Below, piece by piece: positions 3,001-19,950 of a DNA stretch of 64,000 nt (the stretch's first letter is position 1; each line of letters begins with the position of its first letter). This stretch comes from an uncultured Candidatus Saccharibacteria bacterium (GTDB lineage: Bacteria; Patescibacteriota; WWE3; 2-01-FULL-39-13). The stretch is taken from assembly GCA_965230915.1 (NCBI GenBank), contig OZ246395.1, forward strand, positions 858,431 to 922,430. The letters are read 5' to 3'. The notes beneath the pieces were generated by a model, which ran no database searches, was not told where the DNA came from, and saw only the letters and a list, made by a program, of their open reading frames with translations. The translations under genes and the position numbers were made by a program.

Positions 3001-6000
3001 AGTTCCATCAAGCCATGCACGTTTAGCATTGGCAGTTTCATCCCATGCTAATCTGAAGTGATACCATTGTCCCGCAGTTGGAGAAAAGCTCTGCCTTAAT
3101 AGTGTCCCTTGAGCTGCTGCTGCATAGATCGCAGCCTCTAAATAACCGTCGGGAGTATGTCTTATAAAAAGTCTGTTCGTATCTCCAAGGTTGGCATAGT
3201 CTACAAGGTACGCACCTTTGGGGTTAGAAGGAGAACCTGAATAATTCGCTTTAAACCAGAAATCAATTGTTCCGTTTTGACGTGCACTGGCGGTTCCGCT
3301 CTGACCTTCAATATTATATCTAGTAGCGATACTGCTACTTGTAATTGCATATGTAGGATAAACCAAAACAGCGCTGCCAATACCATTTACACCAGTCCAG
3401 GATCCGTTATTTCTTAAGTAATTATCCTGGAGCAAAAGCATTCTATCCCCGAACTTAGTTGCGGTTGGAGACCCCGATGGAATCCTTAAGCTTATCTCAT
3501 CATCAGGGGAAGTATATGTAGTACCGGGGGTTGCAGTCCCTGAAGATCCGGTTGCACTGCCTGTAACTGTATATTTACTTTGCGTCGGATCCCATTCAAA
3601 ATCCCAAAGTTCATATTTTGTGTCTCCGTTAGAGGTCGTAATTCCCACAGCACTATCTAGTCCCTTATAGCTTCTAATTCCGGTGGAACTTAAATATATT
3701 TTGTCGCCAATTTCCGGAGGAGTTACCCCGTTTCTCCCACCTTTATGCTTAAGGGTGAAGTTGATATAGCTGCTTGTAAAAGGTGTGCCTGGGGTAGCGG
3801 TGCCAATCGAACCTTGAGTTGAACCTACAACATTCCAAGTTCCCGTATCTGTGAATGTGTCCGAAAAGCCTGTGTCTGTTGAAACTGTGTCGAATAAGGC
3901 TTTCATTCCTTGGGACGCAGTTGCAGAACCTGTATAAAGTCCGAATCGGCCTGCGGTATATGTTGCATTTGTTTCAGTTTCATCCCACGAACCCGGCTCA
4001 CCTGAAGAACAATCTGAAGTCGCCCAGAACTTTGCATTAAGAGTTGTTCCACTAACTTGAGCCTTCAAACAGTACCAGGTGTCTTCACTAAAAGCTTTTG
4101 TGGTCGCTGAACCAATTAAAGTCGGAACACCAGCCAAAGTCGTATACCAGCCGATTGTATTAGCCGCATTCGTTTTTGTTATTAAGGCGGCATAACCATT
4201 TCCGTCAAGGTTCTGCCTCATCATTACTCCAACACGTCTAGATGTTGCATCCGCAACCATATCCATTTTTACGAGCGCACTTATTGTGTAATCGGTGCCA
4301 GTTAGCGAACCATTATGCAAAACAAGGTGCTGAACGTTGGTTGCATTAACATTTAATGTTCCACTATCAATATGCCAAATATATGGAGCTGAAGGTAAAG
4401 CCTGAGCACTTGTATATTTTTGGGTTTCTATCCAGCCAGGAGAGTTTCCATATTCAAGAGTCCAAGTTTCATTTGGATCATAAGAAGCTCCCGGAGTGAC
4501 CTCAGATAGTTTTGCCTCTTGTACGCCTGATGAAACAGCAATAGCCCCCGATGATAATCTTTCTATACCGCTCATTCCTATAGGTGTTGTTTGATTAGCC
4601 GGAGAAGTAGTCCACGATGAAAAACTGGAAATTCTTGCTCTGACCCAATACGCATTAACACTGTTAATCGTGGTTTTTGCCGGAGTGCCTGTTAAGTTAG
4701 AAGGCGTCCAGCTAAGTATTTTTCTACCGGTATTCGAACTAAAAACCGATGTGGGATCAACAGAAACCCAATGTCCGCCATTTAATCTTGAGACTCTGGC
4801 GTTCTGAGCCGTTGTATATCCCGATGGAAGCGGCTCCGCAAAAGTCAAAACAGTCGCAGTTGGAGCTGTTGTTCCAAGTCTTCTATATATAGGACTCGAA
4901 TCATCATCGTCAATCATTACGATTTGGTCTAAACCGAAGTTTGCTCCACCTTCAGGGATTGTTATTGTGTAAGAGTTTCTGGTTATATCAGCAGACAACG
5001 GCATCGAGTAATCGGTTCTAGGCTGATATATATACGAATCTCTAGGTGTAAAACTAATCCAGTTAGAACCATTCCAGAATTCCCATACATAACTTGCAGA
5101 TGCAGACATTAATGTTCCAATATTAAATTCCAGCGAATAGAACATACTGTTGCCTTGATCTGCAAAGTACACTGCATCATTTACTTCAGAATTTGCGCTA
5201 TCACCAAAAATCGTCCATGCAGTACTATTCGCATAGTTAGAAGAATAGCTTACAGATCCACCGTTATAGTTGGCATTGTAAATATTTGTTAGAGGAACCG
5301 TACCGATTTCGGAAACCTCCATATTTGGAGCCGGTAAATCATTTTTACCTCCAGCGGTCACACCTCCGGTCCAGAGTGGCATTTGGGCAGCATCATCAAC
5401 GCTTCCCATTTCTAAAGTAGAAATATTATTATCTGGTGGCAGGTTTGTTCCACCGCCGACTGCAATTTCATCTGTGGGCTGCCAGTTTCCAACGACATTG
5501 TCTTCCACATCAACCCAAGTATTGCCTGCATCTGTAAGGTTGTTCCCCAAATAACCGGTATCAATGTTGCCATCGATATCAACGGCCAAATCGCTCTTGC
5601 TTGTTCTAAAATCGCTCGACCCATCTGCATACAAACTAACTCTTCCGGTACGAAAGTTTGTCTGCGTAGAAGCAGCGATAATACCCGTCATTGTAAAAAC
5701 CCCGGCTCTACGATCTGACCCTGTTGGAAGTTCGGTAGTTATGCCTTTTGCGATATAAGCGCCTTGCGCTGTTGTATAACCGGTAACGGCAGCGGCAGTT
5801 AAAGTGATTGATGTCCCGCTTTGAATAGCGGCAATCACACGGGTTATTGCGACAGAATTATTATCATCAAGAATTATAGTATCTCCAACCGCAAACCCTG
5901 TTGTTGATGTAACAGTAAGTGTCGTGGAAGCGGCAGAATCTACAGTAAGAGTAGTCGAAGCTGCCGGGCTTACATTATCAAAATGTATATCCGAATAAGA

Positions 6001-8484
6001 AGAAGCTGGCAAAGCCGCCCCCGGTTTACCGAATGCGACAGAAGCATTAGACTCTACGACAATTTTGCCCGGGATATTTATTCGATAATGTTTGTTGGCT
6101 GAATTATCTATTCCTAGCTGCGAACCGGGGGTAACTAACGCCGAAACCCATCCGCCGTTAGATGTATATGCCGCAAAGTCGGTTCGGCTACCCGCACCAT
6201 CGCCGACCGCACCTGATACATTGCCAGTATATATAAGACCTGCGTCCCAATTACGGTCAATCGTAACAACGTGGCTCTCTTTAGTCGCCCAATTTATATC
6301 ATTTGATAAATTCGAAGAATCATTAGTATCCGGATCGGATTTTCCATTACCAACAATAACCATATCTCCATCTGCGGGCGCAGTAGTATTGGCATCTCCA
6401 TATGCTACAAAGTAAATATGTCTATTAGATAAAAATGGATATCTCGTTGAAGAAGTTGCAACTGCCTCTGATTTGGCATAAGCAAGAACAACACTCGTAG
6501 TACGAGCCAACAAAGTTGAACCTGTAGGGTTTTGAGCGTGATTTATAGAGGTCCACTTTAAAACATTTCCGTTTGAAGGTGTCCCGGTATTAGAAAGGGT
6601 AACCGAAACTTCAGCTATTTTTGCCGATTGATCGGTAGTGTAAGTTCCGTTTCCAGGACTGCTGTTTAATGTTATTGGTTGACCGACACCACAAGAGCCG
6701 GAAAAACTTGAAATCGTTCTAGTTATTATTGGGGAGTTATTATCATAAATGGCTACAGTTCCGCCTGTTGCAAACTTTGTATTGTCCTCGACGCAAATTA
6801 CAGCCGTAGCATCTGTGTTTGCCTGAACAGTCTGATGTGCACCCTGAATTATTCTTTGCTTCCAAATTGATCTAGCCACGCTGGCATTTTTAGAAGTTGT
6901 ATAACCGGTAACCATTGCAGAAGTTGTAACAATGGCAGGGCCGTCCGAACAGCTCGCATGTGATGAAGTCACAGATGCAATAGTTCTTTGTATTGTAGCT
7001 GTATCTGAATCCCAAATATCAATATATTGATTAGCCGCAAAACCGGTAGTAGAAGCTACACAAATTACCGTTGTTGCGGTTGAATTAGCAGTAAGAGTAG
7101 TTAAAGTTGCCCCATCATCAACCCAAGAAGCACCTGTCGCACCGTCAGTAGCGGTTGTCAGTTTTCTTGCTTGAGTTCCTGATACCGAGCCTACAATGGT
7201 CCAATCGCTTGTGGCCGATGAATAGGTCGCGGTCCAGTGCTCATTTTCAGTCCTTCTTGCTGTAGGCAATCCAACTCCCGCGGAAGAATTAGCGACGACC
7301 ATTCCACCTAATAAAGATGCTGAACCGCCAAGCACACTATTTGAAGTCAACGCAGGCGGCATATTCATAGTAGAGGCACTTGTAGCATCAATATCAATTA
7401 CGCCGAGTGTTCTAACAGTTCCATTTACCGAAGCAAAACCATTAGACTGAGGCGATTCGCCCCATACTCCAAGAGCAGTCGTCGCCGGAGCAGTCGCTCC
7501 CATATTTATAATGCGTATTCCATAATGCTTAGTCGTCGAAACGCCCGGATCAACAGCCAAAGGCGGATCAAATCTAAAATCTAGAGTTGCTCTACCAAAA
7601 TTACCCGGCTGGGAATTTTCGCCAGATGTAGCCTGATTAAATTGCCATACAGTTCTTCTTTCGACAACAGTATCCGAAGGGTAAGTATAAGCACCCTGTG
7701 TGCCTGTTACATAATTCGAACACGATGAAGTACAGCTCGCGGATGGAAACCTTAGAAGCTCAACCACAATATCGCTGTTTGAAAGCGAAGTCGATGTAAT
7801 GTTTTCCATGATTATCTGAACACCGGCTATATTGCCGTCATCTGAAGGCGTAAAACCAATAAATTGTGCCGCCGCATAAGTTGCTGTCGCCGCCATAGGA
7901 ACGTATCCGACTGCCAAGCCTCCGGCAGAACCATCGGTCGTACCACCCGGGTGAATTGGGTTAAAGGTTCCCGATTCGGCATCACCGTTAACACCATCGC
8001 CCGAATATGCCATCGCTGTATACCAGTCACCATCAGTAGATAGGGTCGTACTTTGCTTTGATATTTTAACCGCACCTGTAAACGTCGCCGCAAAAGGCTT
8101 TGGCGCAAATAATTTTGACGATACAAATATAAAAATTGCAACAAAAGCTGGAGCTAAAAATACAATCGCCAAGACAAGAGGTAAATGCCTTCGGACATAC
8201 AAAACAATCTTTGCCGGAGTTAGATTTTTTATATCTCTATAAAAATTTTTAATGAGTTTTTTGTAATCGGTAGTTCTGAAAGTTCTGTATAAATTTTTAG
8301 AAAATATAATTATTTCCTTCTTCGAAAACCTGACATTCTTGATTTTTTTAATAAGGAAAATGATTGATGGAATTATTCCCGAAGTCTTTTCTTTTATAGT
8401 TTTAGGTAAGTTCGCTAATAAGGTCTGCCACACAACCATCTTTCGACGGTAAACTGACTTTCGCCTGGGCAGATTAGTTCGCAT
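1..8484 (-). CDS. Giant cell-surface protein, partial (start at 8484, continues past window start; >2820 codons in window). N-terminal TM anchor, parallel beta-helix-like repeats, LamG/concanavalin-like motif, repeated ~65-aa T/S-rich modules
   Basis: Manual translation of the minus strand from ATG (rc of cat at 8482-8484) stays open to position 1 with protein-like composition. The ORF track shows no >=60-aa ORF in this frame and only short ORFs in the other frames, as expected if one frame runs off the edge. TM helix LVLAIVFLAPAFVAIFIFV near the N-terminus; ISNNIFSINNYGIRLYGNSFFNMSDNVF is a PbH1-like beta-helix repeat; GSIDEFAIFDDDID is a LamG-like motif. Confidence 0.85.
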   Translation of the reverse strand, partial: MRTNLPRRKSVYRRKMVVWQTLLANLPKTIKEKTSGIIPSIIFLIKKIKNVRFSKKEIIIFSKNLYRTFRTTDYKKLIKNFYRDIKNLTPAKIVLYVRRHLPLVLAIVFLAPAFVAIFIFVSSKLFAPKPFAATFTGAVKISKQSTTLSTDGDWYTAMAYSGDGVNGDAESGTFNPIHPGGTTDGSAGGLAVGYVPMAATATYAAAQFIGFTPSDDGNIAGVQIIMENITSTSLSNSDIVVELLRFPSASCTSSCSNYVTGTQGAYTYPSDTVVERRTVWQFNQATSGENSQPGNFGRATLDFRFDPPLAVDPGVSTTKHYGIRIINMGATAPATTALGVWGESPQSNGFASVNGTVRTLGVIDIDATSASTMNMPPALTSNSVLGGSASLLGGMVVANSSAGVGLPTARRTENEHWTATYSSATSDWTIVGSVSGTQARKLTTATDGATGASWVDDGATLTTLTANSTATTVICVASTTGFAANQYIDIWDSDTATIQRTIASVTSSHASCSDGPAIVTTSAMVTGYTTSKNASVARSIWKQRIIQGAHQTVQANTDATAVICVEDNTKFATGGTVAIYDNNSPIITRTISSFSGSCGVGQPITLNSSPGNGTYTTDQSAKIAEVSVTLSNTGTPSNGNVLKWTSINHAQNPTGSTLLARTTSVVLAYAKSEAVATSSTRYPFLSNRHIYFVAYGDANTTAPADGDMVIVGNGKSDPDTNDSSNLSNDINWATKESHVVTIDRNWDAGLIYTGNVSGAVGDGAGSRTDFAAYTSNGGWVSALVTPGSQLGIDNSANKHYRINIPGKIVVESNASVAFGKPGAALPASSYSDIHFDNVSPAASTTLTVDSAASTTLTVTSTTGFAVGDTIILDDNNSVAITRVIAAIQSGTSITLTAAAVTGYTTAQGAYIAKGITTELPTGSDRRAGVFTMTGIIAASTQTNFRTGRVSLYADGSSDFRTSKSDLAVDIDGNIDTGYLGNNLTDAGNTWVDVEDNVVGNWQPTDEIAVGGGTNLPPDNNISTLEMGSVDDAAQMPLWTGGVTAGGKNDLPAPNMEVSEIGTVPLTNIYNANYNGGSVSYSSNYANSTAWTIFGDSANSEVNDAVYFADQGNSMFYSLEFNIGTLMSASASYVWEFWNGSNWISFTPRDSYIYQPRTDYSMPLSADITRNSYTITIPEGGANFGLDQIVMIDDDDSSPIYRRLGTTAPTATVLTFAEPLPSGYTTAQNARVSRLNGGHWVSVDPTSVFSSNTGRKILSWTPSNLTGTPAKTTINSVNAYWVRARISSFSSWTTSPANQTTPIGMSGIERLSSGAIAVSSGVQEAKLSEVTPGASYDPNETWTLEYGNSPGWIETQKYTSAQALPSAPYIWHIDSGTLNVNATNVQHLVLHNGSLTGTDYTISALVKMDMVADATSRRVGVMMRQNLDGNGYAALITKTNAANTIGWYTTLAGVPTLIGSATTKAFSEDTWYCLKAQVSGTTLNAKFWATSDCSSGEPGSWDETETNATYTAGRFGLYTGSATASQGMKALFDTVSTDTGFSDTFTDTGTWNVVGSTQGSIGTATPGTPFTSSYINFTLKHKGGRNGVTPPEIGDKIYLSSTGIRSYKGLDSAVGITTSNGDTKYELWDFEWDPTQSKYTVTGSATGSSGTATPGTTYTSPDDEISLRIPSGSPTATKFGDRMLLLQDNYLRNNGSWTGVNGIGSAVLVYPTYAITSSSIATRYNIEGQSGTASARQNGTIDFWFKANYSGSPSNPKGAYLVDYANLGDTNRLFIRHTPDGYLEAAIYAAAAQGTLLRQSFSPTAGQWYHFRLAWDETANAKRAWLDGTPFTTGQASTVGTRGANAGLVIIGNRYTYDAAFDGSIDEFAIFDDDIDTSAGCNYGSFTPPSSAWTGGETVTCSGSGVAGTNIFRASFDSAMNPREGWVWADYAFGNPSIIFTNGADTGNERIRVITYPQRTRVWVDNTGDKYTPSARIKSGSGFLENAALATLTGWSNNFTYHHKAKRESEDNPTYSPVLNLKRNTHIWSTENISYTGATTGAPINAGLGFGPVAVGLSGLATLDFSDVSMENQYSNFSIVGNPYTSAAVKPTQRVSNSVFYNFYDRAYTVSGKTEGTNYVGAYFVTTNFAAANIGSGYNASTSQNVGIDGSIFMGNRNAYVTVPPAAANGAAAFFSGRLYTVSNSEFYNNGVAGSGTSGALNFSSGVAKVTISNNIFSINNYGIRLYGNSFFNMSDNVFDGHTSSDVVTVGSEYGSGIRFAQTASSIAITDDGSVFGRGLWNESDINTSPNTATFEAESLAQFTGSGTQFLSPVLFGTAGYTNMSRIPEHYFGTTIPGTDIRGTYSTNTKDIVNFTTFGNMRTTGQSLSDTTVRTSGGYSWRMEPTSADVTLDYTAKVVGVATKPLAVTGYIYVNDAYGSSNLPTVTLSGLGMTGDNLTWTASDDPGTWQQFVVSGTPTESALAELVISVKNNFVASDSGTNEVIALPIGNYLPPMFEDVDKSWTPNQWVGYKLKDSNGKIFDIVRNTSQILYLKGTVVPFLRSTTFAATTVGDYVIYEPPYVYIDDVSILSGSVDTGTLDFYADGQPVSPWLSTGLTAEGVWAAQYSNFADTDGSFGQLLQDSLVANYANVSDPSATTTSFNTNLTSATDNFYNDGVIIFTEGQNTGVVRRISDYAGASKTITLDPALPFSPANGNRFAILAATSSSTGGGGGASAADIWSYALRSLTTADLDSGSLATQADIDGLNDITAQQVWEYGTRTITGEVALTSASRSAIWDSACSILNTSGSVGKRVCDNLDAAVSSRSTLTAADVWAEATRTITGITDPA

Positions 8485-8847: not shown

Positions 8848-9240
8848 TTAAGGTTGTGCGTTTGAGCGATCCTCTGTCAACAAGTCTTCTATCTTATCAA
8901 GCAATTCCGCGATGGAAATATTGCTCTTAATAAAGTAAAAAGCGGGACGCTCTATTAGAACCGTACTCAAAATGTTTTCATCAGGCTCTAGATTCGTTAG
9001 CATTATAACTTTCGTCTGATTACCGTTTGGCTGCTTTCTCACATCGCCTAAAACGGTAACTCCACTAATGCCTGGTAGCATAATATCTAGAATTATGAGA
9101 TCCGGTTTTTCAAGCTGAGCTAGCTGAAGGCCAATTTCTCCGTCATTTGCTTCAATAACATCGTAACCGGATTCGGTAAGTTTATCTCTAAGTAATCTTG
9201 CATAGGATTTTTCATCCTCGATTATAAGAATTTTTTTCAT
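8848..9240 (-). CDS. Stand-alone response regulator receiver (REC-only, CheY-like)
   Basis: KILIIEDE...DLIILDIMLPGISG receiver motifs and no output domain. Paralog of 12685..13056 (shared C-terminal IMLTNLEP...IE.PA.YF.KS). Followed by hairpin GTGAGGGCTGCATAGTCTCAC + UUUUAU. Confidence 0.85.
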   Translation of the reverse strand: MKKILIIEDEKSYARLLRDKLTESGYDVIEANDGEIGLQLAQLEKPDLIILDIMLPGISGVTVLGDVRKQPNGNQTKVIMLTNLEPDENILSTVLIERPAFYFIKSNISIAELLDKIEDLLTEDRSNAQP

Positions 9241-9244
9241 TTTT

Positions 9245-9628
9245 TTATAAACTATTTGTATACTTTTTTACCTTATTAACAACACTTGAAAGAGATTCAT
9301 CAGATTTTATTATATAGCCGTCTATGCCTATTTTCTGAACCTTTTTAATATCGTCGTCCTGCCCTAAATTTGAAAGCGCTACTACTTTTAAGTCTTTAAA
9401 TTCATTATTTTCTCTGATTTGTTTTAACACTCCGAAGCCATCCATTACCGGCATTATCAAATCAAGTAAAACTAAATCTGGCTTTAGACGCTGCAAACTT
9501 TCTAACAGCTCTGCACCATTACTCACTGATATAATCTTAAATTTTTCCTTTTCCAACGTCGATTGCAAAATTCTCTTATAGGCAACTTCGTCTTCAGCTA
9601 TAAGTATAAGTTTATTACGCATTCTCAC
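9245..9628 (-). CDS. Stand-alone response regulator receiver (REC-only)
   Basis: LILIAEDE...DLVLLDLIMPVMDG; 14-nt overlap with the upstream kinase gene, so operonic. Confidence 0.85.
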   Translation of the reverse strand: MRMRNKLILIAEDEVAYKRILQSTLEKEKFKIISVSNGAELLESLQRLKPDLVLLDLIMPVMDGFGVLKQIRENNEFKDLKVVALSNLGQDDDIKKVQKIGIDGYIIKSDESLSSVVNKVKKYTNSL

Positions 9629-12221
9629 CCTCCTTGCTTATAGGGATAGTAAAAGAAAAGGTCGAACCTTTGCCTTCTACGCTTTCGACACTAATATTCC
9701 CACCCCACGCTTCGATATATGCCTTCGCTACGTATAAACCCAAGCCTGATCCAGTTGTGTTTTGCTTAATTGCTTGTTCAGACCTGTAAAATTTCTTGTA
9801 AATCTTTTTTAAGTCATCAGATGAAATACCAATGCCGTGATCTTTAATGCTAATTTTCAAAAAATTTCCAGATACTTCTGTAAAAAGTTCAACAGTGTTT
9901 GAGGCACTACTATATTGAATAGCATTCATAACAAGATTCTCAATAACTTCTTGTAAGCGCATAGGATCAAGAAAGATTTTTGTATCTGAAATCTCTTTAG
10001 TAACAACAATGTTCATATCAGATTTTTTAGCTATTATGGACAATTGCCCTAATACTGTTTTCATAAATTCTGGCAAATCAACATTCTGAGGAGTGCTTAC
10101 TGCTTTTCCTTGGTCAAGTCGAGAAATTACTAATAAGTCCTTAACGAGCGAAAGCAGCCTATCGTTGCTTTTCTTTATTTCGTTGAAATATTCTTTCCCT
10201 ATTTTTGGTAATTTATTGAAATATTTTTCGGTACTAATAGCTTCTATATACCATTTTGCGATTCCTAAGGGCGTTCTTAATTGATGAGAAGCAAGCGATA
10301 CAAATTCACTTTTTGCACGATCTATCTCTTTTTCACGAGTAACATCATCGAACACACAAATTACAAAAAGTAACTTATTATCCCTACCGAGAACCGGAAC
10401 CCCTATAACGTGTAAATTTAATTTCTTACCTTTAGCATTTCTTACAAAAAGGTCATCTTTTTCTATAGATTTACTTGTATTTAAAACTATATTTACAGGT
10501 AATTCTTCTTCAGGATATTCTTGATCATCCTCACGTATAATTTTGTAGATCTTTGTATAATTGCCGGATTTTGCGGATTCTTTCACCCCTTGGCCAAGAA
10601 GCTCTTCTCCTCTAGGATTTATAATAAGAACTTTGCCCGATGTCCCTTCTACCATAAAGACACCTACAGGCAAATGCTCAAGTAGACCCTCTAGTTTGAA
10701 TTTTTCTTCTTCAATTCTTAACTTAGCTGCTTTTAGATCCTCAACTACTGCAACCATTTCCATACGTGCTTGTTCCTGTTCCTTATTCGACAATTCTAAG
10801 TCTTTTGTTCTTAAAATAAGTTCATCCTGATATTTCTTTCTTTCTGTAACATTTCGAACACTACAGTTAATAATATCCTTCATGCCAACCCTTATAGTGT
10901 TGCATACAACTTCAGTCGTAAGCCTTTGCCCAGATTTTGTTACCAAATGAATATTTTCATAATCGATATGCCCATTTTTGACTAATTTCTCCATTAAATT
11001 CTTTGCCTTTTCTCTATCCTGAAACCAATTGATAGTAATTGGATTCTTGCCAATCAGCTCAGCTTTTGAATATCCAAGCAATTTTTCGAAATACGGATTT
11101 ACATCAATAATTTTGAAATCAGCTGTATCCAAAAGTACTAGTCCGTCCCTAGCCGTTTCGAAAAGACTTTGATATTTTATTTCTGCTTCAGTCACTTTAT
11201 CATCTGATCTTTTAGCCTGAATATATAAGATAAAAAATAATAATAAGCTGAAAATTATACCGCTCGTTAATAATGACGACGATAAAATATCTCCGGAAGC
11301 ATATTCTCCAAATCCATTTGTAGACATATATTTCACGGTCCAAATATGATCCCCGACCCTTAGTGTCTTTATATCAGAGAATTCAGGATTATCACTCACA
11401 CCAACACTGTCTGGCCTATTACTTTCAAAAACAGGCTTAAAATTATGAAGTCCATCTTTATATTCACCATCGTAAACAGCCAATGATAGTCCATTAGCTT
11501 CCGATTGAGATATGATTCCTGTAAGGATATTTTCGGTAAGTAGAACAACATTCACAAATCCACTTACAAATTTAACCCTCTCCTCTGGCTGGGTATCTGA
11601 TACGTCTTTACTATATATAGGGATCGTCATAATAAACCCATCTTTATCATACGGGTGAATATTAATAATATTCGTTGTCGCGGGAATATTATTTTCAGCT
11701 GCTCTTTTTAAGGTTTCTTCTCTATCTTTATCCGTATATAAATCAAACCCATACATCTTCTCTACTTCAGGCGTTTCGGGAACAATATATTTAACCACTG
11801 CCGAAATAGAATTATTAGTATCAGGATATATTTTAAAATCTGGATAGCCACGCCCGTTTATCGAACGATCGTTACGAAACTCATTTGCAAATTGCAATTT
11901 ATTTTGTGCCGGAACGAGTTCGATATAGGAAACAAATTTAATGTCAGGATAGTCTGTGATTTTAGAAATACCGACAAAAGTTCGCCATTCATCTCTATTA
12001 ACTTGTGAACTCGCCTGAAAAAAAGCTTGTGTGGAATATAAAATGTTTTCATAAAACTTAGTCCTATTTTCAAGTGTATATTGAATAATATTTACTTTTG
12101 TATGAAACTCATCCAATCTTCTTTTTGCTGTTATATCAGTAATTTGTAAGTATACAAACAACGTGATACATAGTGAACAAATAAGAACTAAGATGGCAGG
12201 AATTAGTTTTTTGCTTCGCAT
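9615..12221 (-). CDS. Sensor histidine kinase: N-terminal TM, CHASE-like periplasmic sensor, second TM, PAS domains, HisKA, HATPase_c
   Basis: H-box FVSLASHQLRTPL and ATPase G-boxes GSGLGLYVAKAYIEAWGGNISVES...GKGSTFSF. Two hydrophobic segments flank a ~300-aa extracytoplasmic domain. Confidence 0.9.
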   Translation of the reverse strand: MRSKKLIPAILVLICSLCITLFVYLQITDITAKRRLDEFHTKVNIIQYTLENRTKFYENILYSTQAFFQASSQVNRDEWRTFVGISKITDYPDIKFVSYIELVPAQNKLQFANEFRNDRSINGRGYPDFKIYPDTNNSISAVVKYIVPETPEVEKMYGFDLYTDKDREETLKRAAENNIPATTNIINIHPYDKDGFIMTIPIYSKDVSDTQPEERVKFVSGFVNVVLLTENILTGIISQSEANGLSLAVYDGEYKDGLHNFKPVFESNRPDSVGVSDNPEFSDIKTLRVGDHIWTVKYMSTNGFGEYASGDILSSSLLTSGIIFSLLLFFILYIQAKRSDDKVTEAEIKYQSLFETARDGLVLLDTADFKIIDVNPYFEKLLGYSKAELIGKNPITINWFQDREKAKNLMEKLVKNGHIDYENIHLVTKSGQRLTTEVVCNTIRVGMKDIINCSVRNVTERKKYQDELILRTKDLELSNKEQEQARMEMVAVVEDLKAAKLRIEEEKFKLEGLLEHLPVGVFMVEGTSGKVLIINPRGEELLGQGVKESAKSGNYTKIYKIIREDDQEYPEEELPVNIVLNTSKSIEKDDLFVRNAKGKKLNLHVIGVPVLGRDNKLLFVICVFDDVTREKEIDRAKSEFVSLASHQLRTPLGIAKWYIEAISTEKYFNKLPKIGKEYFNEIKKSNDRLLSLVKDLLVISRLDQGKAVSTPQNVDLPEFMKTVLGQLSIIAKKSDMNIVVTKEISDTKIFLDPMRLQEVIENLVMNAIQYSSASNTVELFTEVSGNFLKISIKDHGIGISSDDLKKIYKKFYRSEQAIKQNTTGSGLGLYVAKAYIEAWGGNISVESVEGKGSTFSFTIPISKEGENA

Positions 12222-12313
12222 TTTAAATGTTTCTAATCTGTAACATACCTCCTTTTAAGTATATTGAATCTGCCATCGATGTCAAAATAGTATCTGGTTG
12301 TTAATACTTACTG

Positions 12314-12365: not shown

Positions 12366-12593
12366 ATGAAATTCGGAGACAGGCTGAAAGCAAAAAGGAA
12401 TAAATTAAATATTACCTCTCAAAATTTGGCAGATCTCTGTGGAATATCACGCAGCTATATAACACTTATCGAAAATAACAAGCGACTCCCCGGAAAAAGT
12501 GTAATTCCAAAACTTGCGAAAGCTTTAGACCTAGAAGTAACTGTAATAATAAATTGGTACCTTGAGACAGTAAGAGAAAGTTTGTCTAAATAA
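12366..12593 (+). CDS. XRE-family helix-turn-helix transcriptional regulator
   Basis: ITSQNLADLCGISRSYITLIENNKRLP is a canonical Cro/C1-type HTH. Confidence 0.8.
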   Translation: MKFGDRLKAKRNKLNITSQNLADLCGISRSYITLIENNKRLPGKSVIPKLAKALDLEVTVIINWYLETVRESLSK

Positions 12594-12684
12594 ATAAACT
12601 GTATTCATTGACTGCCATATAGAATTCCTCTATCTTATAACTTATATAGTTACATATTTGTAACAATATTTATAAACAACCTTT

Positions 12685-13056
12685 ATGACAAAAATTCTTA
12701 TAGTAGAAGATGAATTAGCCTATTTAAAACTACTAGAAAGCCAATTGTCCAAGGCAGGATATAAAATAGTTACTGCCGAGAATGGAAAAGTAGGATTAGA
12801 AAAATTCAAAAAAGAAAATCCCGACTTAGTTTTGCTAGATATAAAAATGCCAATTATGGACGGCATTGCAATGCTCGATGAAGTAAGGAAATTCGAAGGA
12901 ACCACAGACACTAAAGTTATAATGCTTACGAATCTGGAACCAAACGACCAGATAATTTCCGAAATTGTGATAGAACAACCCGCCTATTATTTTGTAAAAA
13001 GCGACATTAATATTTCAGATCTACTTAAAAAAATAAAGGAGCTAACTAAAAGTTAA
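12685..13056 (+). CDS. Stand-alone response regulator receiver (REC-only), paralog of 8848..9240
   Basis: KILIVEDE...DLVLLDIKMPIMDG. Preceded by palindrome GTTACATATTTGTAAC (12641-12656). Confidence 0.85.
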   Translation: MTKILIVEDELAYLKLLESQLSKAGYKIVTAENGKVGLEKFKKENPDLVLLDIKMPIMDGIAMLDEVRKFEGTTDTKVIMLTNLEPNDQIISEIVIEQPAYYFVKSDINISDLLKKIKELTKS

Positions 13057-13121
13057 TTACCTGTTATTTTAATGGGGCTTTTACGCTTAATTAAGGTTAC
13101 ATAACAGTAACATTACTAACG

Positions 13122-16100
13122 ATGGATTATTTTTCGGCAGAACAAACTGCAAAATTATTAGGAATCACAACGGATAAATTGAGCATTTTGGAACGTCAAG
13201 GCATCCTACATCCGTTAAAAACTGCAAACGGTAATATTCAATATCCAAAATCAGACATAGTGCAAATCAAATCTCACAATAGACATTCAATTTCTGAAGA
13301 AGCTGAGTTAATGGGCTCTGTTATACAAAAAGATCTTGTTAAATCAACATCTCTAATGAAGAAATCATTATATGTGGCAGGGAGTTTTATAGCTGTTTAT
13401 ATCTTATTAGTAATAATTTTTATTATTTCATTTAGTAGTAACCCGATCCAAACCGCCAAATGGCTTGGAATAATAAGAAATTCAGAAGCCACATCTACTT
13501 TAGCTCTGAATTCTAACGGCGGCAACGTTCTTGGAGCAAGTACTATAGAGAACGAAAAAGATTCCGTAGTACAAACAATTTTACAGCCAGTAGGCAAAGT
13601 CTCTTTAAAATTAGTCAAAAATATAAAACCCGATGCTTACGCGGAAGTTTCAGAAGTTACAATTCTCGACCCTAATGATGTTTTAAAATTAAATACAGAC
13701 GGGAATATGGTGCCTGAAAAACCAATAGATATCGCCGATAGCTCATTACTAAAAGTTAGAGAAAGCGATCTTGTCGAAAATTTAAACTCACAATATGTTC
13801 AAGGAAGACAACCTGGAACAAACCCCGGCGATTTAGCTATTGTTGGAGATAATAGCCAAGAAGTGGCTGCACCTATTATAGTGCAAGACAATACTTTGGC
13901 AGAAAAAATATCCGAACTCACCAATGATAATTTTTCGGGTAACGCAGCGATCTCGAATAGTAATCTGGCAAACTCAAGTATTACAATAAATACTTCAGGA
14001 CCGATTTCAGGTGGAGATACCATTGCCCTAGGAGGGGCCATAGACATTGACTGCCCTACATGTATAACCGATGATTCCGACTTTGTGACAGAAGGCAGCA
14101 CTAATACCTTCATAAATAAAAGTATAAACGCGACCGACAATACCATAACAGGTCTTAATTCGATTAATCTGGAGGCCGGCGATTATTCAAGTAAAATCAC
14201 AAGCGGAACATATTCAATAAATATAACCGGCACGGTTGATACAGCAATAAATTTTTCAGGACAACTTTTAGGAGACGTAACGGGAACCCAAACCGCAACA
14301 AGTGTAGAAAAAATAAAAGGACAATCCCTCGGGAATGTTTTACCGACATCGGGAAATATTCTTATCGGAAACGGTAGCGAATGGAACTCAGAGCTTTTAA
14401 GCGGAGATGCGACCATCGATGCGTCCGGCGTTATAACTTTAAAAAATACTGGAACCGCTGGCATTTTTGGCTCATCTAATTCAATTCCAATCATCACAAC
14501 CGACGCACAAGGTAGAGTTCTATCTGCATCAACTACATTAATCACAGGTTTAGGTCCATCAAGTCTTTCATCGGGTGATTATTCGTCCGTTATCAATTCA
14601 GGAATTTATAATATAGATATTTCGGGAAACGCTTCAACCGCTACTTCAGCCACTTCTGCAAATACAGCTACAACCGCAAATTCCGCGACTAATTTTACAG
14701 GGAACTTATTGGGCGATGTAACAGGTACACAAAGTTCAACAATCGTCGAAAAAATAAATGGCGAAAATTTAGGAATAGTTACACCTACTTCCGGAAATTT
14801 GTTAATTGGTAGTGGAACCGAATGGGTAACAAAATCTTTAAGCGGAGATGCAACAGTAAACTCTTCCGGTCTAGTTTCATTAGTAAACACAGGCACGGCA
14901 GGAACGTATGGCTCATCTAGCGAAATACCAGTTATTATAACCGATTCAAAAGGAAGAGTTACCGGAGTTGCTAATACATCAATAGCAAACTTAAGCGTTT
15001 CGAATTTTATATCTCAAAACATTTCGCAATGGACAAATGATTCATCTTTTATTACCAACTCATCCATTAATAACTTAACAAATAAAACTATCTCGGGAAT
15101 TACAAATACATTATCTGATATATCAAACTCTTCGCTTTCGAATTCTTCAATAACATTTGCGGGCAATGTCGGTTCTGGCAATATTTCACTTGGAAGCACA
15201 ATAAATATTCTTGGCGGAGGAATAAATTCAACATCTTATTCATCTGGAACGTTAACAATTACCGGCACCGAAGCCGATACTTTAAGTTCTGTTACCGGTC
15301 GTGGATCTTCAACAAACAATACACTCACTTTAAACGGAGGAATTAATACAACTACAACAACAAACTTAAATCTAGATACCGGAACCACAGGTTCAATATT
15401 AATAGGCACAGGTTTTAATTCCAAAAATATAGGAGTCGGAAACACATTCGGATCAACCAGCTTAAATCTTTTTTCAGGTACGGGAAATATAAATTTAGTG
15501 GCAGGTCCGACGAGTTCAAGTGAAAAAGTACAAATCGGGAATAGCGCATCGGCTACTCCCGACATACTTGTATTAGATAATGGAACAGCCGACCCATCAG
15601 GCATAAATGGTGCTATGTACTACAATACTGCTACAAATAAATTTAGGTGCTATCAAAATGGTTGGACTAATTGTATCAGTAATGTTGGAGCTGATATTCA
15701 AAACGCAGTTTCATATGACACCTCACAAGACTTAACAAATATTGGATCCGCACAAGTCACAGTCACGTCGGTAACGGTAACTCCAACGACGGCAACCGGA
15801 GATGTTTATGTTAGAGCAAAAGCTGAAATATTAAGCAGTAATGGAACAGATCAAACTCTAGTACTTTCGATAGAAGATAACGCAACTTGTACGGGATCAA
15901 CACTTACATCAAACCCGATAACAATAACTTCTGCTTCGGGAACAGTTATTGGAGATTTTGAATTGTCTGCAGTCGAAGTCGATGCTGGAACATCGCCGCA
16001 GTCTTATTCTTTATGCGCGTCTACAGCAACAGGAGATACCGACATCAGACTTTATCAAATGTTTGCAACTGTAATTGATACCGGATCGGACTTAGCAGAA

Positions 16101-16787
16101 ATTTACACAACAAAAGATGAAGATTTAGAAACCGGGGATATAGTTTCAATTGACCCTGACTTATCGACAGGTGTAATGAAAAGCTCCAAACCTTACGATA
16201 AAAGTGTTATTGGAATAGTCTCCACAAGTCCCGGAGTCGTAATCGGTTCAGTACAAAAAGAAGGCGTCAAAGCCATGCCTATTGCTTTAAGTGGACGCGT
16301 ACCGACCAAAGTGTCGACAGAAAACGGATCAATATACCCAGGAGACTACCTTACAACTTCATCTATTCCCGGTGTCGCTATGAAATCTACGAAAGCTGGT
16401 CCGATTATTGGAACCGCAATAAATTCATTCGATGACGATAAAGTTGGAAAAATTTTAGTCTTTGTTAAAAATGGATCTTCAAATATAGATTCGGGCGAGA
16501 ATGAATTTGTTAATTCCTTCGGAAAAACCACAGTTAAATCAGGTGAGTCCGAAGCTCAGATTGATTTCTCTGACGAATACAAAAAACAATTAGCAGATAC
16601 AAAAGTAAGTCCATTCATAAATATAAGCCCGAGTCTGAATGATGAAGATGAAATTGAGGACTTACCTCAATATGCCGTATTCGACATCTCTAAAGAAGGT
16701 TTTAAAATAAAAATTTCTAAGACAACAGGGTTTGATATTGATTTTTCGTGGGTCGCTGTTTCACCAAATTCCAAAAACCATGAGTGA
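13122..16787 (+). CDS. 1221-aa membrane-anchored protein: N-terminal MerR-type HTH, single TM, large S/T/N/G-rich extracellular region with a tandem ~135-aa repeat and a conserved C-terminal domain
   Basis: AEQTAKLLGITTDKLSILERQGILHPLKTANGNIQY matches the MerR HTH pattern. TM segment SLYVAGSFIAVYILLVIIFIISF. Internal tandem duplication ~14170-14990. Upstream palindrome GTTACataacaGTAAC at 13091-13106. Confidence 0.8.
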   Translation: MDYFSAEQTAKLLGITTDKLSILERQGILHPLKTANGNIQYPKSDIVQIKSHNRHSISEEAELMGSVIQKDLVKSTSLMKKSLYVAGSFIAVYILLVIIFIISFSSNPIQTAKWLGIIRNSEATSTLALNSNGGNVLGASTIENEKDSVVQTILQPVGKVSLKLVKNIKPDAYAEVSEVTILDPNDVLKLNTDGNMVPEKPIDIADSSLLKVRESDLVENLNSQYVQGRQPGTNPGDLAIVGDNSQEVAAPIIVQDNTLAEKISELTNDNFSGNAAISNSNLANSSITINTSGPISGGDTIALGGAIDIDCPTCITDDSDFVTEGSTNTFINKSINATDNTITGLNSINLEAGDYSSKITSGTYSINITGTVDTAINFSGQLLGDVTGTQTATSVEKIKGQSLGNVLPTSGNILIGNGSEWNSELLSGDATIDASGVITLKNTGTAGIFGSSNSIPIITTDAQGRVLSASTTLITGLGPSSLSSGDYSSVINSGIYNIDISGNASTATSATSANTATTANSATNFTGNLLGDVTGTQSSTIVEKINGENLGIVTPTSGNLLIGSGTEWVTKSLSGDATVNSSGLVSLVNTGTAGTYGSSSEIPVIITDSKGRVTGVANTSIANLSVSNFISQNISQWTNDSSFITNSSINNLTNKTISGITNTLSDISNSSLSNSSITFAGNVGSGNISLGSTINILGGGINSTSYSSGTLTITGTEADTLSSVTGRGSSTNNTLTLNGGINTTTTTNLNLDTGTTGSILIGTGFNSKNIGVGNTFGSTSLNLFSGTGNINLVAGPTSSSEKVQIGNSASATPDILVLDNGTADPSGINGAMYYNTATNKFRCYQNGWTNCISNVGADIQNAVSYDTSQDLTNIGSAQVTVTSVTVTPTTATGDVYVRAKAEILSSNGTDQTLVLSIEDNATCTGSTLTSNPITITSASGTVIGDFELSAVEVDAGTSPQSYSLCASTATGDTDIRLYQMFATVIDTGSDLAEIYTTKDEDLETGDIVSIDPDLSTGVMKSSKPYDKSVIGIVSTSPGVVIGSVQKEGVKAMPIALSGRVPTKVSTENGSIYPGDYLTTSSIPGVAMKSTKAGPIIGTAINSFDDDKVGKILVFVKNGSSNIDSGENEFVNSFGKTTVKSGESEAQIDFSDEYKKQLADTKVSPFINISPSLNDEDEIEDLPQYAVFDISKEGFKIKISKTTGFDIDFSWVAVSPNSKNHE
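14170..14990 (+). repeat. In-frame tandem duplication (~135 aa x2) inside the 1221-aa gene
   Basis: SGDYSSKITSGTYSINITG...GDVTGTQTATSVEKIKGQSLGNV...TGTAGIFGSSNSIPIITTDAQGRV repeats as SGDYSSVINSGIYNIDISG...GDVTGTQSSTIVEKINGENLGIV...TGTAGTYGSSSEIPVIITDSKGRV. Confidence 0.8.
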
Positions 16788-17865
16788 GAATAATTTTTAT
16801 GATGATGGCCCGGACTTCGGCCCAGATTCACTTGTAAATGAAATAAATTCTTTGGCACATAAATATTATCCCGCCGAAAACCCAAGCGAAATTCCTGAAA
16901 ATAACTTCACTCATCTGACTAGAAATATATACATTCAAGCCGGAGTTCCAGTCTTGGCTTTAACTTACTTAATGTTATTTAGCAATTCGCAAAACACGAG
17001 TGCTCAAAGCACTGTTGAAATTCATGTGGAACCCTCAACAATTGCGAATGCTGCGTGCTATCCGGATGAACTAGAATTCCAAATTACAAATGTAAATGAA
17101 GATAATGCTCCCGGAACAATTTGGGTCAGCTGGAACGACGAAACTTTACAAATTGAAATCTTTGCAGTAGATCAAAACGGTACTGCAATATATCACGTTA
17201 CTGATCCCGACTTGCTCGATGGAATATTGGAAGACTCATGGACAGAAATATTTGCACAATGGATAGGACAATTTGTAGTCAAAGGGTGTGCCACTCCAAC
17301 ACCAACATTCACTGCAACCTCAACGGAAACTCCAACACAAACCTATACAGCTACGGCAACTGAAACATCTACCGAGATGGCTACTTCGACTTCCACGTCT
17401 ACATCTACAGCAACGGCTACTTCGACCTCGACCCCAACTTTTACTGAGACACCTAACCCAACAGCGACAGCAACAGATACGTCAACAGCGACCCAAACTC
17501 CTAGCCCAAGTACAACATCAACTCCCAGCACAACCTCAACGCCAATTCCAAGCTCGACTTCTACATCAACGGAGACTCCAACTGTAACTTCTACAAATAC
17601 ACCAAATGCTACGACAACAGAAACTCCAACTCAAACCTTTACCAGTACTCCATCACCGACACAAACACGCACCAATACCCCTACTAATACTCCTGTTGAA
17701 TTGGTAGAAACTAACACTCCTACTTTTACGCCAGATCCATCGCCTACAGCCCCAACCCATACTGGCTCCCCCACACCAACAGATATAACGCCAAAACCTA
17801 CGGCGACAATAGAACCGACAGCTACGAAACCTAAAATATATGCCCCTGAAATCGAAAAAAACTAG
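16780..17865 (+). CDS. Secreted/surface protein with a long Thr/Pro/Ser-rich mucin-like C-terminal linker (start placed at the ATG overlapping the upstream stop in ATGAGTGA)
   Basis: Hydrophobic N-terminal segment VPVLALTYLMLF; ~170-aa TPT/TST low-complexity tract (17290-17800). The track start at 16732 overlaps the upstream gene, and the internal ATG at 16780 gives a 4-8-nt overlap typical of coupled genes. Confidence 0.65.
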   Translation: MSENNFYDDGPDFGPDSLVNEINSLAHKYYPAENPSEIPENNFTHLTRNIYIQAGVPVLALTYLMLFSNSQNTSAQSTVEIHVEPSTIANAACYPDELEFQITNVNEDNAPGTIWVSWNDETLQIEIFAVDQNGTAIYHVTDPDLLDGILEDSWTEIFAQWIGQFVVKGCATPTPTFTATSTETPTQTYTATATETSTEMATSTSTSTSTATATSTSTPTFTETPNPTATATDTSTATQTPSPSTTSTPSTTSTPIPSSTSTSTETPTVTSTNTPNATTTETPTQTFTSTPSPTQTRTNTPTNTPVELVETNTPTFTPDPSPTAPTHTGSPTPTDITPKPTATIEPTATKPKIYAPEIEKN

Positions 17866-19413: not shown

Positions 19414-19950
19414 ATGTTCTTTAGACGAACAAAAAATCGAAATACCGGTTCATACATCCGCGACGGCGTATTTGCTGCAAATGACGGCATTATTACCACC
19501 TTTGCAGTTATAGCCGGGTCACAAGGTGCGGGCATTACAGCCGCAGTTGTCATTATTTTAGGCTTTGCAAACCTTTTCGCCGACGGCTTTTCTATGGCCA
19601 GTGGAAACTACCAAGGTATAGAAAGCGAAGAAGCGTACAACAGAGCAAAACACCTCTTTATTCCTCGCGAATCAGAGCCGGCACTTTTGCTACACCCGAT
19701 AATTACCTTCTTATCTTTTATAGTAGCCGGGCTAGCACCACTTTTGCCATATATTTTAGGGCTAGAAAATGAATTCGAGCTTTCTATGGCACTTGTCGCA
19801 GTTTCACTTTTTGCAGTCGGATGTGTTCGAGGATACTATTCAAACAAGGCATTTTTCAGATGCGGATTAGAAAGCCTGGCCATCGGAGGAATTGCAGCAG
19901 CAACTGCTTATTTCATAGGTTACTTTATAGAAACCTACGTTATTAAATAA
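19414..19950 (+). CDS. VIT1/CCC1-family (DUF125) membrane protein, putative Fe/Mn transporter
   Basis: ANDGIITTFAVIAGSQGAG signature plus multiple TM segments. Confidence 0.75.
   Translation: MFFRRTKNRNTGSYIRDGVFAANDGIITTFAVIAGSQGAGITAAVVIILGFANLFADGFSMASGNYQGIESEEAYNRAKHLFIPRESEPALLLHPIITFLSFIVAGLAPLLPYILGLENEFELSMALVAVSLFAVGCVRGYYSNKAFFRCGLESLAIGGIAAATAYFIGYFIETYVIK

Follow-up and report, generated by a model that had tools for sequence, protein, structure and literature searches.

A 64,000-nucleotide stretch of the genome of an uncultured Candidatus Saccharibacteria bacterium (assembly GCA_965230915.1, contig OZ246395.1, positions 858,431 to 922,430; hereafter the window) encodes a phage-tail-fibre-like surface fibre whose inner end is a genuine MerR-type DNA-binding fold. 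The open reading frame (ORF; 13122..16787, plus strand, ATG start, 1221 residues) joins a helix–turn–helix (HTH), a transmembrane (TM) helix and the fibre, and its coordinates are exactly those of a first-pass annotation made from the sequence alone. That annotation had also proposed a cytoplasmic MerR-type winged HTH (wHTH), one TM helix and a giant repeat-rich ectodomain, an architecture that fold, hydropathy and composition uphold. In our judgement the protein is probably an anchored adhesin that trimerises by itself, matures by autocleavage of the phi29 gp12 type, carries a TNF-like tip and is controlled through the operator of an XRE protein, with the wHTH as an accessory module linking the fibre base to DNA or to a receiver. 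The fibre would sit in the membrane as a type-II (N-in/C-out) trimer built like a phage tail fibre, and a gp12-type chaperone (residues 986–1125) would nucleate trimerisation from the C-terminus and then cut itself off at S989|D990. After the cut, a jelly-roll (859–985) would form the outer end of a fibre some 900 residues long that one TM helix holds in the membrane. The fibre would likely serve to attach to glycans, be they on a host cell, a partner cell or some other surface. The fibre gene would be the conserved output of a small regulon of a sensor kinase, a single-domain receiver and a 75-residue XRE repressor, in which the fibre, receiver and kinase genes share a 16-bp operator that overlaps their predicted transcription starts and would be bound by the XRE protein. 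The most likely role of the wHTH would be to tie the fibre base to a cytoplasmic partner, either DNA (as in transmembrane transcription regulators) or the receiver encoded directly upstream, and so to feed the status of the fibre into the same circuit.

A whole-database search recorded the identical protein once in an NCBI assembly, beside 51 relatives. About 27 relatives begin with the same module in the same order (HTH, a helix of consensus LSEEAAxVGxQIQRE, one hydrophobic segment and P-L-Q-T-A-x-W-L-G). Because the HTH is kept in frame in these homologues (consensus xxSxxQAAKLLGISxxxLxxLEKQGxLH...G...YSxxEIxxIKSxRG), the start codon does not lie downstream of it. The domain occupies residues 1–55 (13122..13286, plus strand) and is assigned as a cytoplasmic wHTH of MerR/excisionase type by Pfam, profile comparison, AlphaFold2 (AF2), Foldseek and its conservation in homologues. 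Pfam MerR_1 matches residues 5–50 (E=5.7e-4) with 20.4 bits, just below the gathering cutoff of 21.6 bits; HTH_17 and MerR match more weakly (MerR with 14.2 bits versus a cutoff of 28.2), NCBIfam gives a weak HspR match only, and the Pfam scan found no match in the rest of the protein. Compared with PDB sequences, a profile of 25 homologous N-termini matches RacA (E=0.007) and GlnR (E=0.015) and, more weakly, TnrA, SoxR, CueR and MtaN; phmmer with the whole protein against PDB sequences returned nothing useful. With the N-terminal alignment as input, AF2 predicts a beta-alpha-alpha-beta-hairpin-alpha fold (predicted local distance difference test score, pLDDT, 91–95 for residues 1–50), and Foldseek against the PDB matches this model almost exclusively to MerR-family or Xis wHTHs: HiNmlR, BldC, SoxR, RacA, CueR and MtaN with probability 0.97–1.0, and also GlnR, TnrA, Pukovnik Xis and CarH. 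BldC, for instance, superposes with a root-mean-square deviation of 1.5 Å over 50–51 residues (probability 1.0). Profile and fold thus both point to MerR-family wHTHs, and the MerR-like HTH of the first-pass annotation is real by fold and conservation and no chance match, though Pfam MerR_1 stays just under threshold. The OmpR/PhoB-type wHTH of the ToxR/CadC subfamily proper was not matched, fold and profile giving MerR/Xis only. The effector-binding region and long C-terminal coiled-coil dimerisation helix of MerR proteins are not present; instead, helix 57–106 becomes the TM segment.

The conserved juxtamembrane linker that bears the helix consensus given above (residues 56–81, 13287..13364, plus strand) is helical in the alignment and the AF2 model; A61 is invariant, Q69 is nearly invariant, and the linker is kept even where the HTH has been lost. 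The TM helix (residues 82–105, 13365..13436, plus strand) coincides with a hydropathy maximum of 2.8 and lies, in the AF2 model, within the one long helix 57–106 that follows the wHTH. No further segment passed in a hydropathy scan of the whole protein, as expected from the single TM helix first proposed. Directly after it stands the motif P-x-Q-T-A-x-W-L-G (residues 108–116, 13443..13469, plus strand), which aligns also in paralogues without an HTH and in a sister subfamily (B, below). Because no signal peptide precedes the HTH and extracellular-type modules follow the TM helix, the latter is best read as a signal anchor in N-in/C-out orientation. A cleavable signal peptide and a base domain of the MAT type (the Bdellovibrio fibres compared below) were not found in the protein, which has an 80-residue cytoplasmic region and a signal-anchor TM helix instead.

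Serine (13.8%), threonine (12.4%), glycine (10.1%) and asparagine (8.9%) together make up 45% of the ectodomain, in agreement with the S/T/N/G-rich region described at first pass. A segment-wise phmmer map against homologues divides the ectodomain into a base (136–330), repeats (330–830), a domain at 830–985, the C-terminal domain from which the first-pass annotation had quoted (985–1110) and an end (1110–1221). The membrane-proximal base domain (residues 136–330, 13527..14111, plus strand) has the same position in most family members. Within the repeats, protein self-comparison reveals a tandem pair (copy 1, residues 378–488, 14253..14585; copy 2, residues 525–635, 14694..15026; both plus strand) with 57% identity and E=8e-40, which is invisible to Tandem Repeats Finder at the DNA level and was found in the protein only. 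The duplication reported earlier therefore exists, but its offset is 147 residues and not 135. The repeats are shared with Bdellovibrio and Bacteroidota proteins named 'tail fiber domain-containing' or 'beta strand repeat-containing', the Bdellovibrio matches aligning within the repeats only and not in the base domain. Many homologues carry Collagen repeats and some carry Peptidase_S74, both of which are hallmarks of trimeric fibres. Beyond the repeats, a TNF-like, lectin-type jelly-roll (residues 859–985, 15696..16076, plus strand; AF2 pLDDT about 80–89), the probable tip of the mature fibre, is matched by Foldseek to Photorhabdus PLTL, Burkholderia BC2L-C-nt, the C-domain of Chlamydia Pgp3 and the tip of lambda gpJ. 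The PLTL and BC2L-C-nt matches have E=5e-5 to 2e-4, probability 1.0 and target-normalised TM-scores of 0.62–0.70. Against a viral fold library, the same domain matches many Caudovirales collagen-repeat, neck appendage, minor tail, side tail fibre and host specificity J proteins. From the Collagen and S74 modules of the homologues, the fold matches to trimeric TNF-like lectins and the gp12-type chaperone described next, we infer that the fibre forms a homotrimer. The ectodomain thus looks like a phage-tail-fibre-like adhesin, built of lectin-type domains and an intramolecular chaperone, and not like a ligand-sensor domain.

The C-terminal domain, conserved in 22 of the 52 matches, was likened at first pass to those of phage tail-fibre or collagen-like spore-surface proteins, and its tail-fibre affinity is borne out by homology to the autochaperone of phi29 gp12 (residues 986–1125, 16077..16496, plus strand; Peptidase_G2-like) and by the preceding TNF-like jelly-roll of the phage-fibre-tip type. 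A profile of 17 sequences matches gp12 residues 688–768 (PDB entry 6qz9, E=6.6e-5) as well as the entries 3gqh (E=3.6e-4) and 3suc (E=0.002), and its match to the cleaved autochaperone fragment 3gqh begins at the first residue of that fragment. D990, A992 and E993 are invariant across the 17 sequences and align with the D-F-A-E that opens 3gqh; the Asp and Glu at the gp12 cleavage site are said, in work by Xiang et al. of 2009, to be catalytic. Because these invariant residues align with the start of the cleaved gp12 fragment, autocleavage of the fibre is predicted at S989|D990 (nucleotides 16086–16091, plus strand). In phi29, the C-terminal domain of gp12 is an intramolecular chaperone that is cleaved off once the trimer has folded (PMC3357383, PMC4690869). 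Among the relatives, P0044 reaches 21.9 bits with Peptidase_G2 (PF11962), a weak match versus a cutoff of 25. The protein ends in an H-type-lectin-like beta-sandwich (residues 1130–1217, 16509..16772, plus strand; AF2 pLDDT 58–86); Pfam H_lectin (PF09458) matches 11 of 11 aligned homologues below its 24-bit cutoff (best E=3.3e-5) and the fibre itself with E=0.035 and 14.7 bits, likewise below it.

A prophage origin of the gene was considered and rejected, as a PHROGs scan of the protein gave just a weak excisionase match confined to the HTH residues and no match in the ectodomain. The neighbours of the related loci are housekeeping genes, a cellular and not a prophage context, and an Rfam scan of the window found two tRNAs and nothing else.

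The signalling genes named at first pass (an XRE regulator, three stand-alone receivers and a CHASE-PAS kinase) are all present. A 123-residue stand-alone receiver (12685..13056, plus strand) lies directly upstream of the fibre gene and a 75-residue XRE (HTH_3) protein, the probable palindrome binder, before it (12366..12593, plus strand), both with orthologues in related loci. A CHASE-PAS-HisKA-HATPase histidine kinase (9615..12221, minus strand) is divergent from the fibre gene and is followed by two further stand-alone receivers (9245..9628 and 8848..9240, minus strand). The gene immediately before the fibre gene, in the same orientation, encodes a receiver in 8 of 8 loci that bear an HTH (the window, L001, L002/L003, L004, L005, L006, L008 and L013), a count that covers every related HTH locus with upstream sequence. 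In L001, L002 and L013 a PAS or GAF kinase directly precedes or adjoins the receiver, and tblastn finds XRE orthologues of 51–56% identity in L001, L002/3, L004, L005 and L011. Two paralogues whose HTH is missing, P0016 (L011) and P0021 (L012), combine a short cytoplasmic tail with the TM/P-x-Q-T-A module of the fibre, and they too have a receiver directly upstream (2 of 2), with a kinase and further receivers downstream.

The first-pass annotation had pointed to two GTTAC palindromes, and both exist and are conserved across genomes, although its positions were 5–8 nucleotides off. One operator-like palindrome (GTTACATAACAGTAAC, 13096–13111) ends 10 nucleotides upstream of the fibre ATG, and the other (GTTACATATTTGTAAC, 12649–12664) lies 20 nucleotides upstream of the receiver ATG, downstream of the promoter-like pair TTGACT-N17-TATCTT. 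A one-mismatch copy (GTTTCTAATCTGTAAC, 12229..12244) stands 7 nucleotides upstream of the start codon of the kinase on the minus strand, where a promoter-like pair TTGACA-N16-TATACT is also found (12285–12258). The 64 kb contain only these two perfect palindromes, each with a 6-nucleotide centre, versus 0.33 expected, and their conservation in other genomes shows that they are not due to chance. The cross-genome consensus of the 16-mer is GTTACAAATTTGTAAC. Besides the two in the window, 11 perfect copies occur in 7 loci (L002 and L003, which carry the same protein, being counted as such). Every inspected copy is intergenic and lies 7–35 nucleotides before a start codon, with one exception in L011, where the copy at 3271 is 20 nucleotides from one start and 117 from the other. 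L001, L002, L004 and L006 have an operator before the fibre gene, at the same position as in the window, and signalling genes are preceded by one in L001 (between XRE and kinase), L002 (between XRE and PAS) and L004 (between XRE and receiver). L011 and L012 have one-mismatch operators before operons that end in HTH-less fibre genes, and an operator also before a receiver gene. In 8 of 9 aligned regions, TTGAC-N17-TAnnnT is followed after 6–7 nucleotides by the palindrome and after another 5–20 by the ATG. The palindrome thus overlaps the predicted transcription start, which is the position of a repressor operator acting as a roadblock and not that of a MerR operator. An over-long -35/-10 spacer of 19–20 bp with the operator inside it, as in MerR-type promoters, was not seen in these regions; the spacers have 17 nucleotides, and the palindrome lies past the -10 box. 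The arms are invariant, the 6-nucleotide centre is variable, and one-mismatch variants are uncompensated, which argues for recognition of DNA by a protein; an RNA hairpin in the 5' untranslated region was rejected on the same grounds.

Which protein would bind the operator can be judged from loci in which the HTH and the XRE gene part company. L004 has two perfect operators and an XRE gene, yet the HTH of its fibre (P0025) is without helix 1 and the wing; L011 has operators and an XRE gene, yet its fibre is without an HTH. In L005, neither the fibre gene, whose HTH is divergent, nor its receiver gene is preceded by an operator, and the sole copy lies 8 kb away beside the XRE gene. Conversely, L013 has an HTH-bearing fibre but no XRE gene within 13 kb and no operator. 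Because the operator tracks the XRE gene and not the fibre HTH in these four loci, it is most probably the XRE protein, and not the fibre, that binds it.

This pattern bears on the proposal, made at first pass, that the protein is a membrane-tethered regulator of the ToxR/CadC kind: the fibre would sense contact or the host surface, and the tethered MerR-type HTH would bind the palindromes or other DNA. The proposal is partly supported. The architecture and the signalling context agree with it; the distribution of the palindromes, the recognition-helix residues and the adhesin-like ectodomain do not. A DNA-binding fold joined to a TM helix is, moreover, the working definition of a transmembrane transcription regulator (TTR) (PMC10269533), and strong conservation of the recognition helix in the fibre's subfamily (A) is paired, in these loci, with strong conservation of the operator. 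The profile matches of the HTH include GlnR and TnrA, and the form TGTTAC-N6-GTAACA resembles the TnrA/GlnR box, which is TGTNA-N7-TNACA. Against binding of the palindromes by the HTH speak the operators kept where the HTH is not intact (L011, L004) and missing where an HTH is present but no XRE gene (L013), the L005 operator beside the XRE gene instead of the fibre gene, and an operator position and 17-nucleotide spacers unlike those of MerR promoters. A trimeric fibre would also fit poorly with the dimeric DNA binding of MerR proteins. The operators that follow the XRE gene, their roadblock position, the recognition-helix residues, repeated losses of the HTH and the adhesin-like ectodomain all weaken this reading, and we regard it as possible but unlikely. 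Its probability, like those of the other roles discussed below for the HTH, concerns the HTH only and is compatible with the fibre being an adhesin.

In the recognition helix, subfamily A has S/T-x-D/E-x-L-x-x-L-E-K-Q-G, and subfamily B has S-I-D-T-V-R-R-W-D; the helix of subfamily A is without the Arg/Arg/Trp(Tyr) of subfamily B and of canonical MerR proteins, whose DNA-contact residues are R..R-Y/W. The mean net charge of the HTH is +1.5 in subfamily A, which is near neutral, versus +3.1 in subfamily B. A recognition helix without basic or aromatic residues and with this charge argues further against the tethered regulator, whereas subfamily B, which retains T-[VIL]-R-R-W in tandem copies and is automatically annotated as MerR or excisionase, argues for it. 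Within subfamily A, L-x-x-L-E-K-Q-G is itself highly conserved (x-L-x-x-L-E-K-Q-G in place of the canonical T-[VIL]-R-R-W of subfamily B). The ancestral HTH probably bound DNA.

Subfamily B carries tandem HTHs of the form ISEAAKILGVSIDTVRRWDKKGILHS.RPDGKNRYFS before the TM helix, two copies in the sequences inspected and up to 3 profile matches per protein. Its TM helix lies at residues ~130–260, mostly 165–200, and is followed by the same motif, here P-x-Q-T-A-K-W-F-G, and the same base domain; the ectodomains range from ~100 to 4471 residues, and many members have about 300 residues and an SH3_3 ectodomain. The source names are 'MerR family transcriptional regulator' (Candidatus Levybacteria, Daviesbacteria) or 'excisionase family DNA binding protein'. 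An association with receivers was looked for in two subfamily B loci, L014 and L015, and none was seen. These Daviesbacteria-type loci share a conserved neighbourhood of a divergent HTH_17 gene, then a gene for a 142-residue protein, in which a PIN domain was detected in L015, and a 101-residue MerR gene.

The family as a whole is large. When 1.84 billion cluster representatives were searched by HMMER, the N-terminal profile matched 670 clusters at E<=1e-3, and at least 168 clusters, defined at 50% identity, passed the stricter threshold of E<=1e-10; many of the matches belong to subfamily B. Databases label the members hypothetical or MerR-family; those with a named source belong to candidate-phyla-radiation lineages, and one homologue of the fibre is named 'Patescibacteria group bacterium'. 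Other searches were less productive: a homologous-protein search with the N-terminal profile A1 gave one match only, a scan of genome contigs with the single protein gave 0 loci and one with the N-terminal alignment A3 gave 1, and a metagenome scan gave 4 loci. Among the latter are L007, which is too short to inform, L010, a weak match of 38% over 50 residues, and L009, a false lead encoding a nucleotidyltransferase-substrate-binding-like protein that shares 'LEKQGLIH'.

Across the family, the HTH is lost or truncated in P0016, P0021, P0025 (wing deletion), P0029, P0088, P0092, P0096, P0116 and P0134, and the linker, the TM helix and the P-x-Q-T-A motif persist in these members. The best reading of the wHTH is as an accessory module of the fibre, present in 0 to 3 copies. 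It could, in the extreme, be a vestigial or structural cap inherited from DNA-binding ancestors such as subfamily B, the protein being an anchored adhesin only. Both the repeated losses beside a persisting linker, TM helix and motif and a recognition helix degenerate relative to subfamily B would fit such a remnant, but the HTH is kept and conserved in most members at 26–45% identity, with pLDDT >90. Conservation across divergent homologues implies purifying selection for some function, and we hold a mere cap to be improbable.

Such a function might lie in protein contacts. In a docking arrangement, the HTH and linker would bind the upstream receiver, which the kinase would phosphorylate and which would then act on the fibre tail, either inside-out, in fibre clustering or deployment, or outside-in, the fibre sequestering the receiver; either direction could apply. 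The receivers of all eight HTH-bearing loci are orthologous at 46–67% identity, above the 26–45% of the HTH, and HTH-less fibres are paired with a different receiver subgroup (34–37% identity). The recognition helix has lost its DNA-contact signature yet stays conserved, and a protein-binding MerR-like fold exists, the CbpM-CbpA complex 3ucs being among the fold matches. RodZ offers a parallel, as an HTH-TM protein whose HTH binds MreB and not DNA. The adjacency of receiver and fibre persists, however, where there is no HTH, so the pairing is independent of the HTH and plain co-regulation explains it; stand-alone receivers are, besides, generally dense in these loci (three in the window, five in L011). 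We consider docking rather unlikely, a little more so than tethered DNA binding.

Least probable is the release of the HTH by proteolysis in the manner of Notch, MyRF or RsiV, by a cut near P-x-Q-T-A-x-W-L-G followed by intramembrane cleavage. The conserved motif stands right at the outer face of the TM helix, next to a conserved juxtamembrane helix, and MyRF, a protein mentioned in PMC10769870, sets the precedent of a membrane-bound transcription factor with a phage-fibre chaperone. The motif is equally conserved in HTH-less paralogues, however; no site-2 protease gene was found in any neighbourhood inspected, and the predicted autocleavage lies at the far extracellular end and not near the membrane.

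Several observations weigh against the preferred account of a self-trimerising, autocleaving adhesin under XRE control. The chaperone domain of the fibre itself reaches no Pfam threshold and the protein alone gives no match, and an AF2 model of residues 831–1221 gives this domain a pLDDT of 22–33, so that it is not confidently folded there. The H-lectin-like domain lies C-terminal to the predicted cut, an odd place for an adhesin domain, and cleavage would remove it along with the chaperone, unless the severed piece remains attached or the cut does not take place. The pairing of XRE gene and operator is a co-occurrence in about 10 sampled loci, among which L006 has an operator and upstream sequence too short to show an XRE gene, L008 is likewise too short, and L012 has one-mismatch operators and no XRE gene within 14 kb. 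Finally, the adjacency of receiver and fibre, shared by the HTH-less paralogues, was rejected as proof of an interaction between HTH and receiver, and on its own it does not point to the HTH.

Further palindromes and genes were noted along the way. In L005 (15778..16090), a perfect copy, GTTACAAACTAGTAAC, lies 18 nucleotides upstream of a 92-residue gene that adjoins the XRE gene and encodes a small protein with a signal-peptide-like N-terminus, apparently secreted. In L002 (13763–13778), a one-mismatch copy, GTTACAAATTAGTAAA, follows a sortase gene and stands upstream of an unannotated gene for 483 residues, which may be a further member of the regulon. A one-mismatch palindrome in the window (GTTACTTTATAGAAAC, 19919–19934) lies inside the 3' end of ORF 19414..19950 and is probably due to chance, as 4 matches at <=1 mismatch were found versus 1.2 expected. 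A 19-bp palindrome (TGTTGACTCATAGTCAACA, 12312–12330) overlies the -35 box of the promoter predicted for the XRE gene (TTGACT-N17-TACAAT). The idea that it is a second conserved operator (TTGAC-N5-GTCAA) was rejected, as it is absent from the related loci; the form TTGAC-N(3-7)-GTCAA has just one match elsewhere, on the unrelated contig L010.

At the far side of the signalling cluster, an ORF of >2828 residues (1..8484, minus strand) runs off the start of the window and has an N-terminal TM segment and a Laminin_G_3 domain. It follows the receiver 8848..9240 on the same strand, a second pair of receiver and then giant surface protein flanking the cluster; no GTTAC palindrome lies between the two. 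A relative of 205 residues, P0085, starts like a stand-alone receiver (MKKILVVEDELAYLKLL...) and continues into the HTH-TM module; this may be natural, as a fusion of receiver and fibre or a deletion, or an artefact of the assembly. L006 comes from a 5.9-kb contig titled uncultured Gammaproteobacteria metagenome-assembled genome (CAZVON010000045.1) and is probably mis-binned, because its kinase-receiver-HTH-fibre cluster and its operator match Patescibacteria-type loci. Downstream of the fibre homologues, the genes vary from locus to locus. In the window, a 377-residue ORF (16732..17865, plus strand; TTG start, a later ATG being possible) overlaps the 3' end of the fibre gene; its product has one hydrophobic segment, a long Thr/Pro/Ser-rich tail and no Pfam family match, and it may span the wall.

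In culture, Patescibacteria grow attached to other microbes, and the means by which they recognise and hold their hosts are largely unexplained, with pili as the sole well-studied factor (PMC12206443). The fibre is a candidate host-recognition fibre made of phage tail-fibre modules, its locus a conserved regulon in which kinase, receiver and XRE repressor go together with a 16-bp operator, and the unusual joining of an adhesin fibre to a cytoplasmic domain of DNA-binding fold recurs in hundreds of clusters. A signalling HTH tail would be a new way of linking contact at the surface to gene expression; even without such signalling, the family illustrates how cells took over phage fibre modules. 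A combined role, in which glycan engagement by the adhesin alters the MerR-fold tail and the tail binds DNA or the upstream receiver, strikes us as about as doubtful as receiver docking. Were it true, fibre, receiver, kinase and XRE repressor would make up a circuit, not described before, that leads from contact to transcription in ultra-small episymbionts. Made from phage tail-fibre parts, it would be the prokaryotic equivalent of the membrane-bound signalling of Notch or MyRF, and the family, with its 0–3 HTHs, one TM helix and ectodomains of up to 4471 residues, would represent general surface-coupled regulators in candidate-phyla-radiation lineages. A literature search found no paper that describes a fusion of TTR and tail fibre, the family, the receiver/XRE synteny or the operator, only a general survey of TTRs.

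Among known systems, TTRs are a widespread class in which single-pass proteins are commonest (Demey et al., 2023, PMC10269533). The fibre shares with ToxR, CadC, TcpP and other TTRs an N-terminal cytoplasmic domain of DNA-binding type, one TM helix and a C-terminal extracytoplasmic domain. ToxR and CadC have an OmpR/PhoB-type wHTH and a compact periplasmic sensor, whereas the protein described here has a MerR/excisionase wHTH and an adhesin fibre of about 1100 residues, and the recognition helix of its HTH is atypical. RacA, BldC, GlnR/TnrA and Xis, the best profile or fold matches, are likewise minimal wHTHs without a MerR effector domain, but they are soluble DNA binders with basic recognition helices. 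The fibre HTH has no such basic residues, and its next helix enters the membrane instead of forming the antiparallel coiled-coil dimer of small MerR-like proteins.

What the fibre shares with phi29 gp12 is a profile match that includes the cleavage site as well as the first half of the autochaperone, with the Asp and Glu invariant. Unlike in gp12, the chaperone does not close the chain and is followed by an H-lectin-like domain, the stalk is made of fibre repeats and not of a pectate-lyase-like beta-helix, and the fibre's own match stays below Pfam thresholds. MyRF, too, is a trimeric polypeptide in which a DNA-binding domain and a TM helix are combined with an intramolecular chaperone of phage tail-fibre type, but the resemblance is one of parts only and the DNA-binding domains are not homologous. 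In MyRF, the chaperone is on the side of the membrane where the DNA-binding domain lies, and its cleavage releases the factor; the chaperone of the fibre is at the opposite, extracellular end and so cannot release the HTH. The S74 link of MyRF has been noted together with the MAT fibres (PMC10769870).

The closest cellular analogues are these MAT (mosaic adhesive trimer) fibres of Bdellovibrio bacteriovorus, whose tips include TNF-like and lectin folds and whose chaperones are of the S74 type (Caulton et al., 2024, PMC10769870). Both are cellular fibres of the phage-tail-fibre type with repeat units homologous by sequence, a conserved base domain at the anchor, modular TNF-like or lectin tips and, in many members, a C-terminal chaperone. 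MAT fibres have a cleavable signal peptide, and their surface attachment is unexplained (PMC10769870), whereas the fibre described here has a signal-anchor TM helix and a wHTH. The chaperone is of gp12 (G2) type here and S74 in MAT fibres, although the relatives P0016 and P0017 use S74; the base domains have no detectable sequence similarity, the host is here apparently a Patescibacterium, and the gene lies in a two-component/XRE locus. TTRs and cellular tail-fibre-like adhesins are thus each known kinds of protein.

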